13,874 bases of DNA from a virus (taxonomy: Duplodnaviria > Heunggongvirae > Uroviricota > Caudoviricetes), in the IMG/VR virus record IMGVR_UViG_2695420589_000012, one strand, 5' to 3'. The notes below the pieces were generated by a model. The model was not told where the DNA came from, did not search any database, and saw nothing but the letters and a program-made list of their open reading frames with translations. How positions within the stretch are numbered: the first letter of the stretch is position 1; each line of letters begins with the position of its first letter. Both the position numbers and the translations under genes were made by a program. This document shows, piece after piece, positions 8,817-11,675 of this stretch.

Positions 8817-8973
8817 TAGACTGGCCCCCTGAATCTCCAGACAACCAGTATCACTTAAATAAGTGATAGTCTTAATACTAGTTTTTAGACTAGTCATTGG
8901 AGTACAGATGATTGATGTCTTAGGGCCGGAGAAACGCAGACGGCGTACCACACAGGAAAAGATCGCAATTGTG
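8817..8973 (+). mobile_element. IS2 left end (IRL plus first about 22 codons of orfA/insC), truncated by the IS21-family element
   Basis: TAGACTGGCCCCCTGAATCTCCAGACAACCAGTATCACTTAAATAAGTGATAGTCTTAATACTAG ... ATGATTGATGTCTTAGGGCCGGAGAAACGCAGACGG matches the IS2 left terminus and the InsC N-terminus [22 protein letters not shown] as recalled. Homology stops after ...GCAATTGTG (about 8973). Confidence 0.8.
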
Positions 8974-9030
8974 TCAACGCCACGATGTTTGACCGTTATT
9001 TGCCATTTTCATGCCCGCTAAATACTTTCG

Positions 9031-9831
9031 TTACTGATGCTGTCCGCTTTCCACCATTTCATCATCACTGATTGGCGTTGTGTTTTTGGTCAGCACTCCA
9101 GCTTTACGTTTCTCTTTTAACCGGTAACTCTCTCCTTTGATATTCAGCGTGGTTGAGTGATGTAGCAGCCGATCCAGGATCGCTGTTGCCAGTACGTGAT
9201 CTCCGAACATTTCTCCCCAGTCTGCGAACCCTTTGTTTGACGTCAGTATGATGCTCGCTTTTTCATATCGACGGTTCAGTAGCCGGAAGAACAGACTGGC
9301 TTCCTCTCTGTTCATCGGCAGATAGCCTATTTCATCCAGGATCAACACCCGGGCATAACTCAGTTGCTGTAGCTGACGCTCCAGCCGGTTTTCCTGTTTC
9401 GCTTTCATCAGTGTCGCGATCAGTCTGTCCAGTGGCATAAACAGTACCCGATGTCCCGCATCCACCGCTTTCACGCCAAGAGCTATGGCCAGATGAGTTT
9501 TTCCGACACCAGGAGGGCCCAGCAGGATCACGTTTTCGCTGCGCTCCACGAACGCCAGACCAGCCAGTTCCCGGACAACCTTACGGTCGATGCCCGGCTG
9601 GAAGGTAAAGTCGAACTGCTCCAGCGTTTTGACCCACGGCAGACGAGCCTGCTTCAGCCTGGACTCCATACCGCGCTGATGCCTGCCGTTCCATTCCTGC
9701 TGTAGCGCCATGCACAGGAACTCCCGGTAGTTCAGCTCTTTTTTAGCTGCCTGTTCCAGCAGGCTTTCAACGTGATAACTCAGATGCTCCATTTTCAGGC
9801 GACTCAGCAGGACTTCCAGTTCATGCATCAC
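9031..9831 (-). CDS. istB: IS21-family IstB ATP-binding transposition helper
   Basis: 266 aa with Walker A ([17 protein letters not shown]) and Walker B (LILDEIGYL) motifs and the typical IstB C-terminus ([17 protein letters not shown] ... [19 protein letters not shown]). Confidence 0.88.
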
Positions 9832-10616
9832 AACAGCTCCTCATAGGCACTCAGTGGTCGATGTTCCACCTGACTGACCTGCTGCCAGAGCGGGGCGTGA
9901 TGCTCCGGCACTGTCTGCCAGCCAGACGATGCTGAACAGAGGCGATGTGAGGCCACCAGTTTCTCATTACTGTAGATCCGCAACTCGTCATCCAGCGATA
10001 TTCGTATCGATACCGGCTGACCACACAGCGCTTCGGGAACGCTGTAACGATTACCACCAACCTCGATATAGCTGTCCCAGGACACATGGCGGATATCGAA
10101 GTAACTGGTATCGAAGTCTGTATCCGGTAACGGCTGCAGATGTTCCTGCTCCAGCGCGAAGCGCTGTTCCGGCGTTTCTTTGAACTGGCGAAGCTCCCGT
10201 TTGTCAGCCACATCGGCTATCCATTGCTCCAGTTGTTGATTGACATGAGTGAAGCTGTCGAACCTGCGGTACCGGACGAAGAAGTTCTCCTTGAGGTATT
10301 TCACCATCCGCTCAACCTTACCTTTTGTTCTGGCCCTGCGTGGACGGCATGCCCGTGGCAGGAAGTTATAGTGGTCAGCCAGCAACAGGAATCCGGAGTT
10401 GAACACGACTTTCCCGTTGTTATTCTTCAGCACCGCAGCCTTCTGGTTATCAACCAGCACCGTTTTCACACAACCACCGAAGTAGCGGAAGGCGCGAACC
10501 AGTGATTCGTAGGTATGCTCAGCATCCTGTTTTGGTGCGGCGAAGACATGGAAGCTGCGGGAGAACCCCAGCGTATTAACCGCAAAGTTAACTTTGCNTT
10601 CTATGCGCTCGGTCAT
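9828..10616 (-). pseudogene. istA: IS21-family IstA transposase, N-terminally truncated (lacks the HTH and first catalytic Asp region)
   Basis: 262 aa carrying the DDE-family signature TKGKVERMVKYLKENFF and VLVDNQKAAV, but starting within the catalytic domain. A full IstA is about 340-390 aa. Codon 7 contains the ambiguous base (X). Confidence 0.8.
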
Positions 10617-11675
10617 TTATGCTTTCCACTTCAGAACACCCGAATTTCTCGCGTGCATTAAAAAACGAATCAGCAACAACAGCTGACTGCCGTGTTTCTC
10701 TTCAAAATCTTTTACTCCGGCATGTAGTTCGTTACGGCATTTACGGCATAACGGAATAACAAACAAATCATCAGCCTTTGTTCCCATCCCTCCCAGTCCA
10801 TGACCAATGATGTGATGCGGATCATCTGCCTGATTGCCACACGTCATGCATTTCTGCGTTTTTACCCAGCGCGTGTATACAGGCATCTCTTCCCGTTGTG
10901 ATTTCTGGCGCTGGAGATACTGAGCCGGTGACTCCGGATCAACGGCAATGCTGACCACCGTCTTTTCCTGTGGTGGGTTCTGTTGCTGGTGGACGTGAGG
11001 CAGTAACGCAATATTTTTTGTGCGCTGCTTCAGTATGCTGGTGGCTGTCTGCTCTCCCGGTATGATGTCGCTTTCACTGTACACAGAGCGAATTTTTTCC
11101 GCACGCAACCCCAGCGAACGACGTAATACCGCTTCCGGTAGCGCGTCCGCCACCTGATTGCGGACCGCCCACCAGGATAATTCAGCCAGAGATAATTCAC
11201 GCTCCTGCGTACCGCTTATTGCGTGACCGATGACGTCAATCATCCATGCTGACAGGTTTTGATGAGCAAGTTGCTCGAGTGATTCGGATGTCTGGTCACG
11301 CAGCTGGTTGTCGCAGTGCCAGCACAACACCATTGCGCCGGTACCATAACGGTGAATGACGGTTTCGCTGTGATGATAATCGCCGTGTGGCCACTGGCAG
11401 GATTTAATATGGCGCAACAGCCAGTCAGACAATGCACCAGCACCACCAGCAGCACGAATCACCCGTGCGTTACTGAAAAACGGCAGCAATGTTTTGTCTT
11501 CCACCAGCGGCTGGCGAGCGGCAGGAACGACCCCGGACGGCAGATTACGCATGCTTTTTGGTTCCGGCTCCACCAGTATTCTGCCGTTATGGAATGCTGA
11601 CATTGATTCACGGCCTGGCTTAACGATAACCAGACCGAGTTCCGGTACCAGAACAGGTCGAAGTAATACCCGCAC
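10617..11675 (-). CDS. Prophage DUF968-like protein with C-terminal HNH-type zinc-finger nuclease motif; N-terminus probably continues into the mask
   Basis: C-terminus CMTCGNQADDPHHIIGHGLGGMGTKADDLFVIPLCRKCRNELHAGVKDF shows a CxxC ... HH ... CxxC ... H arrangement. Position upstream of rusA/Q matches ydfU-like genes of lambdoid prophages. The visible start is a GTG 3 nt from the mask edge. Confidence 0.6.
   Translation of the reverse strand: MRVLLRPVLVPELGLVIVKPGRESMSAFHNGRILVEPEPKSMRNLPSGVVPAARQPLVEDKTLLPFFSNARVIRAAGGAGALSDWLLRHIKSCQWPHGDYHHSETVIHRYGTGAMVLCWHCDNQLRDQTSESLEQLAHQNLSAWMIDVIGHAISGTQERELSLAELSWWAVRNQVADALPEAVLRRSLGLRAEKIRSVYSESDIIPGEQTATSILKQRTKNIALLPHVHQQQNPPQEKTVVSIAVDPESPAQYLQRQKSQREEMPVYTRWVKTQKCMTCGNQADDPHHIIGHGLGGMGTKADDLFVIPLCRKCRNELHAGVKDFEEKHGSQLLLLIRFLMHARNSGVLKWKA

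Follow-up and report, generated by a model that had tools for sequence, protein, structure and literature searches.

The junction at position 10598 very probably (about 93%) arose as an artefact of scaffolding when a Shigella sonnei-type genome was assembled in draft form; we infer the join from other genomes of the lineage. The window, i.e. the whole stretch of 13,874 nucleotides that was analysed, originates from a Shigella sonnei-type genome in the state of a draft scaffold with gaps and is a mosaic of two S. sonnei loci, A and B, each found in complete chromosomes (Table 1). The scaffold inserted about 2.5 kb of one prophage remnant into a second, similar prophage that lies about 670 kb away, with the N at 10598 as the point of return. 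A preliminary description had left two options for this site, the scar of a real deletion or a join made across repeats during assembly; the join stands, while the scar is disfavoured by flanks that lie ~670 kb apart and by a junction found nowhere else.

Table 1. Features of the window and their assignment to locus A or B
Feature	Positions	Strand	Remarks
Locus B match	1-8080 and 10599-13874		Gene content hokD, DUF968, intact rusA, Q, methylase, lysis genes
Antiterminator Q gene and final 16 nt of rusA, locus B version	7249-8080	-	Pfam Antiterm match; 3' part of Q under N run 6471-7248
Locus A, identical	8025-10597		Q, rusA, 85-aa gene, helicase remnant, IS2 with IS21 inserted
Path switch from B to A, 56 nt identical in both loci	8025-8080	.	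Final difference between window and A at 8024; first difference between window and B at 8081
rusA, locus A allele, 124 aa (MRHEF...)	8065-8439	-	Pfam RusA E = 1.8e-16
Small phage gene, function unassigned, locus A	8439-8696	-	85 aa from TTG, or 80 aa from ATG at 8681
Phage replicative DNA helicase gene, last 125 nt, interrupted by IS2	8693-8817	-	99-100% identity to helicase 3' end of L013 and L014
IS2 left end, nt 1-154	8818-8971	+	Left inverted repeat and first 21 orfA codons; T at 8972 assignable to either element
IS21-like element, nt 1-1626 from right end	8972-10597	-	istB 9031-9831 and istA 3' 770 nt (9828-10597)
Single N, join of locus A to locus B sequence	10598	.	Both flanks end flush on the N
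rusA, locus B allele, first 18 nt (MTERIE)	10599-10616	-	ATGACCGAGCGCATAGAA; same as rusA start in L004, L007, L011 and Ss046
DUF968 gene, 352 aa, locus B	10617-11675	-	Pfam DUF968 E = 2.6e-62; 100% identity to Ss046

Two prophage loci in a gapped scaffold

Locus A is the ipaH-side prophage remnant and locus B the ompW-side prophage; both are degraded lambdoid prophage remnants, and their Q/rusA regions are 94-97% alike over ~1.2 kb. The gene order of locus B is hokD, DUF968, rusA (126 aa), Q, methylase, tRNAs, esterase and holin, and that of locus A is IS2 with IS21 inserted, helicase remnant, 85-aa gene, rusA (124 aa) and Q. In the complete chromosome CP104423.1, the DUF968 gene is located at ~1.862 Mb and the IS21/rusA_A locus at ~2.533 Mb, with ~670 kb between them, and in CBDDMI010000001.1 both loci are separated in the same way. 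The flanks of the junction are not neighbours in these two intact relatives, as a deletion scar would require. Also, in 10 of 10 complete chromosomes the exact DUF968 protein is directly followed by an intact RusA of 126 aa, and this by Q, and the exact rusA_A protein adjoins hyp85 and IS21 likewise in 10 of 10.

Between 7249 and 8080, the window has no differences to locus B of S. sonnei Ss046 (CP000038.1) vs. 37 to locus A, all of them at or below 8024. Downstream of the N, positions 10599-11678 and 12486-13874 match locus B with 100% identity. The sister assembly L011 places the switch between the loci elsewhere (7925-7993). For the 85-aa gene of locus A, a position after the replicative helicase gene was found in the intact relatives L013, L014, L016, L017 and L039.

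The N at 10598 is the sole isolated N in the window, which has ~10,500 called bases. Seven further N runs (102-333, 1624-2008, 2906-3892, 4053-4228, 6471-7228, 7236-7248 and 11679-12485) had been passed over in the preliminary description. In relatives in which both flanks are 100% identical to the window, the actual sequence differs from them in length (N run vs. relative: 232 vs. 216 nt, 385 vs. 285 and 807 vs. 382), and these wrong lengths mark a gapped draft scaffold. Paralogues are mixed elsewhere in the window, too, e.g. at 4019-4052. An ORF of 851 aa, which combines Q and methylase, crosses an N run and is a convincing-looking fusion produced by the scaffold.

That correct contiguous sequence was masked, at the single N as well as in the N runs, which would allow no statement on the assembly, is highly improbable. 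Some public records do have masked stretches, and the odd N-run lengths together with the 7-nt called island between two runs (7229-7235) are unlike classic fixed-size gaps; however, a mask would not differ in length from the sequence that it replaces, and masking leaves unexplained why the flanks of a one-base N come from loci 670 kb apart. Masking of Stx genes or for safety reasons was rejected as the cause of the N runs, as positions and lengths fit neither stxAB nor an exact-length mask.

The single N and the DUF968/rusA boundary

A lone N among that many called bases does not lie on a two-sided homology break by chance. The homology with IS21 (100%) extends to 10597 and breaks off exactly at the N, and that with rusA/DUF968 starts precisely at 10599. 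In finished genomes, either flank has another continuation: complete genomes read GCACCGTTGCC... where the window has the N, and in relatives the rusA start is contiguous with DUF968 (99.8-100% identity), with rusA_B reaching 126 aa in L004, L007, L011 and Ss046. DUF968 and rusA directly adjoin also in L003-L006. In the window, the DUF968 gene and positions 10599-10616 form a 1080-nt island with N on either side.

According to the preliminary description, the ATG behind the DUF968 stop codon opens an istA remnant, the breakpoint lies 18 nt away from the N, and genes between DUF968 and rusA may have been lost. The TAAATG stop-start (10619-10614) and the lone single-base N are both present, but this is the ordinary DUF968/rusA boundary and not a special in-frame junction: the 18 nt in question are the start of rusA (MTERIE...), IS21 ends at the N, and the break is the N itself. 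No genes are missing, as DUF968 and rusA directly adjoin in every relative examined. The 262-aa ORF at 9828-10616 is a chimera of six rusA codons, one X and then istA, and its frame was kept merely by one N being written, a 1-in-3 chance event.

With any base allowed for the N, the junction had no match in 5,426 complete E. coli genomes, phage records, species-representative genomes, IMG/VR and metagenome contigs; in a positive control, the search did match an N in a database sequence. Independent assemblies likewise lacked this junction with a called base, and sister drafts with the same helicase::IS2 site break elsewhere. In L007, IS21 nt 193 is joined to a point within Q_B, and in L011, IS2 nt 816 is joined to a point within Q_B, each with one N; in both drafts rusA_B is intact and contiguous with DUF968 (100% identity). 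Seven of the eight single Ns in sister drafts lie flush on a colinearity break. We infer the organism of the drafts ADUU and AKNE solely from their colinearity with S. sonnei chromosomes.

The mosaic suggests a path in which the assembler would have read locus B from the lysis genes as far as Q, passed to locus A within the 56 identical nt (8025-8080) and then taken in rusA_A, the 85-aa gene and the helicase remnant, followed by 154 nt of IS2 and, lastly, 1626 nt of the multicopy IS21. There, the scaffolder would next have set the DUF968 contig, which truly adjoins Q of locus B, and one N was most likely written for a zero or negative gap estimate without an overlap being found. Scaffolders such as SSPACE, ABySS and GapCloser can write a single N for a negative or unresolved gap. 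If the junction is such an artefact, reads with ...AACTTTGC should run into ACCGTTGCC (IS21), and reads with ...TTCTATGCGCTCGGTCAT should run leftward into rusA_B (AAATTC..., + strand).

Two observations speak against an artefact. The DUF968 contig stops 18 nt into rusA_B, for which a third paralogue or end-trimming would be needed, and the locus A contig ends flush with a perfect 16-nt palindrome, GCAAAGTTAACTTTGC, at 10582-10597 (the last 16 nt of the IS21 copy in the window), where real illegitimate recombination is equally conceivable. That the contig end stems from a repeat shared by the two rusA alleles of the window is not supported, since there is no long exact match from nt 19.

A real, strain-specific scar would have arisen by copying of a 2.5-kb patch of locus A into locus B, with homologous exchange in the 56-nt Q/rusA stretch and illegitimate joining of the istA palindrome to codon 6 of rusA_B, the N being a badly called base; rusA' and 'istA would thereby be fused in frame into one ORF. 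The palindrome belongs to a type of site prone to illegitimate recombination, the similarity of the two loci suffices for exchange, and IS elements heavily rearrange Shigella prophage remnants. We nevertheless consider this scar very unlikely, because the junction is absent from all collections searched, and complete genomes of the lineage have ~670 kb between the loci, an intact rusA_B and an IS21 that continues past the break. Furthermore, the same blocks show three different "junctions" across sister drafts, each marked by an N, whereas a well-covered true junction should carry a called base, and the assembly is demonstrably gapped with paralogues mixed elsewhere.

For users of such data, the scaffold mis-join is a warning that one N in a draft scaffold may conceal a step from one prophage to a paralogue hundreds of kilobases away. 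Steps of this kind can yield plausible "fusion ORFs", here the 262-aa rusA'-'istA ORF, "truncated" transposase genes and "deleted" blocks.

IS2 and the IS21-like element of locus A

The left end of an IS2 was recovered as previously described; it begins at 8818 and matches the RefSeq-annotated IS2 of L002 including the terminal inverted repeat and the orfA start, with 2 mismatches in ~155 nt (~98.7% identity). Its abrupt stop before the IS21 right end is likewise confirmed, with the length corrected from ~157 bp to 154-155 bp and the stop placed at 8971/8972. Positions 8813-8817 (GTCCG) are the 5-bp target duplication of IS2, and GTCCG is present again past the IS2 right end in the complete chromosome L058 and in L040. 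In both, IS2 thus has GTCCG at both ends, and the coordinates total 1331 bp when a loss of 50 nt is allowed for. The helicase site is without insertion in 25 of 25 other IMG/VR loci, and a search of IMG/VR for the far-side junction of the helicase gene returned just intact helicase genes of other lineages. Among complete E. coli genomes, neither the helicase::IS2 site nor the IS2/IS21 junction was found; therefore, the lineage points to Shigella and not to E. coli proper.

An IS21-like element of 2130 bp begins at 8972 with a right end (TGTCAACG...) that is complete and intact. The window holds 1626 of the 2130 bp, i.e. istB and istA without its first 403 nt, and not a full ~2.1-kb element; these 1626 nt are 100% identical to L001 and L006. 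Pfam assigned IstB_IS21 (E = 2.5e-90) to 9031-9831 and rve and Mu-transpos_C_2 to 9828-10616. Consecutive genes for a DDE/rve transposase (istA) and an IstB-type ATPase (istB), as found here, define the IS21 family, and RefSeq names the corresponding genes in L001, L002, L005 and L006 istA and istB. The IS21-family assignment and the nesting of IS21 in IS2 given in the preliminary description are correct. IS100, its alternative reference, has a shorter IstA (~340 aa) and a size of ~1.95 kb and is a poor fit, as the element matches IS21 in size.

IS21 nt 1 to 2072-2075 of 2130 are present in 13 complete chromosomes (L056-L058 and L060-L069) and in L040, a draft contig without gaps. The istA gene was called with 390 aa in 9 of 10 loci of one set of complete chromosomes as well as in L040 and L058. 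A loss of the first third of istA, as earlier proposed, is not real, since IS21 continues past the break in complete chromosomes with the same IS2/IS21 junction. A complete IS21 and a complete IS2 at the site had been named as the finding that would speak against truncation; IS21 is indeed near-complete, with only the terminal 58 nt gone, but IS2 is not, with ~50 nt lost at this same junction. Other IS21 copies end with ...GCTGACA and have 4-bp duplications (TATA in L001, CTGT in L002). The left end of the locus A copy lies outside the window, and its deletion (58 nt) in complete genomes leaves no readable duplication.

In the history of locus A, IS2 entered the phage helicase gene with duplication of GTCCG, followed by insertion of the IS21-like element after nt 154 of IS2 and a subsequent deletion of ~110 bp across the 7-nt repeat CAACATG, by which the terminal 58 nt of IS21 and ~50 nt of IS2 were lost. 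A search for the reciprocal junction that IS21 should leave if it had inserted cleanly (its left end, then 3-6 nt and IS2 from nt 155) gave no matches, because the real reciprocal junction carries the microhomology deletion. As one end is lost, the locus A IS21 presumably cannot move on its own, despite istA and istB calls of full length in most complete genomes. The underlying real biology is ordinary genome decay in Shigella sonnei.

The nest of IS21 in IS2 is real, yet already public in many complete genomes. That the junction at 8971/8972 is an assembly artefact as well is hardly conceivable. L011 continues from the same IS2 copy into ordinary IS2 and not into IS21, but this is better read as an assembly path that went astray in the 68 nt of generic IS2 ahead of the junction. 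The junction is identical in the independent drafts L007, L008, L040 and L041 and in the complete chromosomes L056-L058 and L060-L069, and IS2 and IS21 have just 1-3 nt in common there, which precludes a false join via a shared word.

Comparison with known systems

The window shares its traits with known mis-joins of short-read scaffolds via prophage or IS repeats, namely an N on a two-sided homology break, a switch within a stretch identical between paralogues, a contig halting in a multicopy IS, other breakpoints in sister assemblies and wrong gap sizes. In the lambdoid DUF968(ydfU)-rusA-Q module, an arrangement found in all relatives examined, the DUF968 stop abuts the rusA start (TAAATG; TGAATG in EC12) and Q overlaps the rusA end; the window differs in having just 18 nt of rusA_B, with the contig ending there.

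For IS2 (IS3 family, 1331 bp), the left end, the orfA start, the 5-bp GTCCG duplication and the total length were all recovered in the locus of complete genomes. Unlike the standard element, the locus A IS2 is interrupted by IS21 behind nt 154 and lacks ~50 nt (roughly nt 156-202). The IS21-like element of E. coli and Shigella genomes and of phage fiAA91-ss (istA and istB, 2130 bp) is 100% identical over the 1626 nt, and the gene order istA, istB, right end as well as the Pfam domains are as in IS21 (390 and 265 aa, 2130 bp). Compared with IS21, the true locus A copy has lost the terminal 58 nt with the left inverted repeat, while the copy in the window stops at nt 1626 as the contig ends.

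Breakpoints at the single N and at the IS2/IS21 boundary

The junction at the N at 10598 is not a real feature of the genome. For its analysis the window was compared with two prophage remnants, namely locus A (IS2 with IS21 inside, helicase remnant, 85-aa gene, 124-aa rusA_A, and Q) and locus B (hokD, DUF968, 126-aa rusA_B, Q, methylase, and lysis genes). Between 8000 and 11700, the IS2 fragment has plus orientation, and all other genes of the window are encoded on the minus strand.

Features around the IS insertion (window positions)
Feature	Position	Strand	Basis
Antiterminator Q gene, end	to 8068	-	
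rusA, 124 aa	8065-8439	-	Pfam RusA
Small gene	8439-8696	-	
Phage replicative helicase gene, 3' end, 125 nt	8693-8817	-	sequence match
IS2 left end	8818-8971	+	
IS21-like element, entered from right end	8972 onward	-	
istB	9031-9831	-	
istA, partial	9828-10597	-	
Single N	10598		
Start of rusA allele, 18 nt	10599-10616	-	
DUF968 gene	10617-11675	-	

The IS21-like element was delimited as the segment common to four copies with different flanks and has a length of 2130 bp. Over nt 1-1626 (8972-10597) the window was 100% identical to it, and homology ended there; all four reference copies read on as GCACCGTTGCC, and the window continued with the N and TTCTATGCGCTCGGTCAT. Read on the opposite strand, these 18 nt give ATGACCGAGCGCATAGAA, with which a rusA allele (MTERIE...) begins; in E. 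coli relatives, this allele is located directly 3' of the DUF968 stop codon. The related record MLI121 (L004) was 99.8% identical to 10599-11678. TAAATG is therefore the natural DUF968/rusA boundary and not an unusual in-frame stop-ATG junction opening an istA remnant, as the preliminary description had it. The N, which had been placed 18 nt into that remnant, is the breakpoint itself, the 18 nt belong to rusA, and the 262-aa ORF at 9828-10616 is a chimera with its frame preserved by the single N.

At the IS2/IS21 boundary (8971/8972), one T is assignable to either element, so the IS2 share is 154-155 bp. Within istA, a perfect 16-nt palindrome, GCAAAGTTAACTTTGC, was detected at 10582-10597 as a self-reverse match, and its edge coincides exactly with the end of the locus A contig; the palindrome may have blocked contig extension. 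The DUF968 contig takes in 18 nt of rusA_B before it ends.

Loci A and B in finished genomes

Locus A records were found by look-up of the 37-aa ORF made by the IS2/IS21 junction, which yielded two N-free NCBI draft contigs. In the longer one (L040), IS21 extends beyond the break point of the window to nt 2072, with a complete istA (390 aa), and IS2 restarts at about nt 203 via the 7-nt repeat CAACATG and runs through to its right end. There, GTCCG repeats the 5 bp preceding the left end, and beyond it 36 nt of helicase sequence precede a further IS, presumably IS600. Ten chromosome-sized records, including HE616528.1, which we take to be S. sonnei 53G, encode a 124-aa RusA identical to that of the window. 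The 85-aa gene adjoins it in all ten; istA was called at 390 aa in nine and istB was called whole in six. In these ten records and in the complete chromosomes L056-L058, the IS21 copy comprises nt 1 to 2072-2075 of 2130. The nesting of an IS21-family element in IS2 is thus confirmed by finished S. sonnei genomes carrying this junction, and the second truncation, that of the first third of istA, turned out to be a scaffold product, since finished genomes carry IS21 beyond the break point.

At the real locus (L040 7080-7170; L058 reverse complement around 10594), 58 nt are missing from the end of IS21 and about nt 156-202 from IS2. The remnants meet across CAACATG, a junction found in 13 complete chromosomes and one draft. 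The IS21 of locus A is a fixed, one-ended copy with istA and istB called full length in most of them. On its upstream side in L056-L058, locus A adjoins a gene with LRR_TTSS and NEL domains (IpaH-type effector) and a DUF4376 gene, an arrangement consistent with a Shigella origin.

Many chromosome-sized records encode the exact DUF968 protein of locus B; one is CP000038.1, whose identity as S. sonnei Ss046 is confirmed by PMC6562246. Among the matches listed, 10/10 had the gene order hokD, small gene, DUF968, RusA (126 aa), Q (273 aa), methylase, esterase, and holin; with RusA directly after DUF968, no genes normally lie between the two, and none of that kind was removed. In CP104423.1, locus B lies at ~1.862 Mb and locus A at ~2.533 Mb.

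Mosaic structure of the window and sister assemblies

In a three-way alignment of the window with both loci, 7249-8080 had 37 differences relative to locus A and none relative to locus B, and 8025-10597 had none relative to locus A. Over 8025-8080 the loci are identical, and the path switch is located here. The segments 10599-11678 and 12486-13874 are 100% locus B, and the left part (1-6470) is colinear with it, so that ~2.5 kb of locus A occupies the place of ~350 nt of rusA_B.

The window is a gapped scaffold with seven N runs (102-333, 1624-2008, 2906-3892, 4053-4228, 6471-7228, 7236-7248, and 11679-12485), the last with 807 N versus 382 nt in Ss046. Locus B's toxin region with hokD (HOK_GEF) lies to its right (12583-13023). 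The pieces around 4053-4228 (4019-4052, 4229-4281, and 4345-5512) are closer to locus A (100% and 98%) or to a third paralogue than to locus B, and their reference coordinates overlap each other; therefore, paralogues were mixed in at least one further place, and the true size of this gap is negative. An 851-aa ORF with Antiterm and DNA-methylase domains (5513-8068, minus strand) arises artificially by translation across the N runs 6471-7228 and 7236-7248; relatives have three separate genes, namely Q, a 65-aa gene, and the methylase. At 5223-5472 (minus strand), with the methylase gene upstream, three tRNAs (Arg-TCT, Arg-TCG, and a CAT-anticodon tRNA, Met by ARAGORN and Ile by RefSeq in relatives) form the late-region cluster that is usual in Stx-type lambdoid phages; stx genes were not visible.

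The exact helicase::IS2 junction is common to six IMG/VR contigs, two of which have the exact IS2/IS21 junction. The sister drafts L007 and L011 contain the DUF968 block at 100% identity with the window. There it continues through an intact 126-aa rusA and 200-230 nt of Q to a single N, which links it to IS21 nt 193 in L007 and to IS2 nt 816 in L011. As these and the window break differently, one lineage in three assemblies gave three 'junctions' of the same two blocks, each with one N. Seven of eight single Ns in these sister contigs were flush on a colinearity break. The B-to-A switch of L011 lies between 7925 and 7993, unlike that of the window, which points to assembly and not biology. At 3448-4267 of L011, the same IS2 copy (both variant bases) leads into generic IS2 without IS21, either by a wrong turn via 68 nt of shared sequence or in a strain without the IS21 insertion.

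Origin of the junction and comparison with known elements

The insertion of IS2 into the helicase gene duplicated 5 bp, and the IS21-like element interrupts this IS2 copy after nt 154. The loss of about 110 bp at the far end of IS21 probably arose by microhomology-mediated deletion, and the remaining copy would probably not transpose by itself. During assembly, the paralogous Q/rusA regions were probably collapsed or mis-threaded, and the scaffolder then probably wrote a one-base gap at a slot for which two contigs competed; a single N is, we assume, a gap sign in assembler output. In none of the finished genomes examined are the flanks of the N neighbours. We give a real strain-specific event a residual chance of three or four in a hundred.

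The scaffold alone made the finding look unusual, through the second truncation, the stop-ATG junction, the N at the breakpoint, and the 'missing' genes. Public records contain annotated examples of IS2, the IS21-like element, and the DUF968-rusA-Q module, all of them standard components, and the nested IS2/IS21 insertion is already present in many finished S. sonnei genomes.
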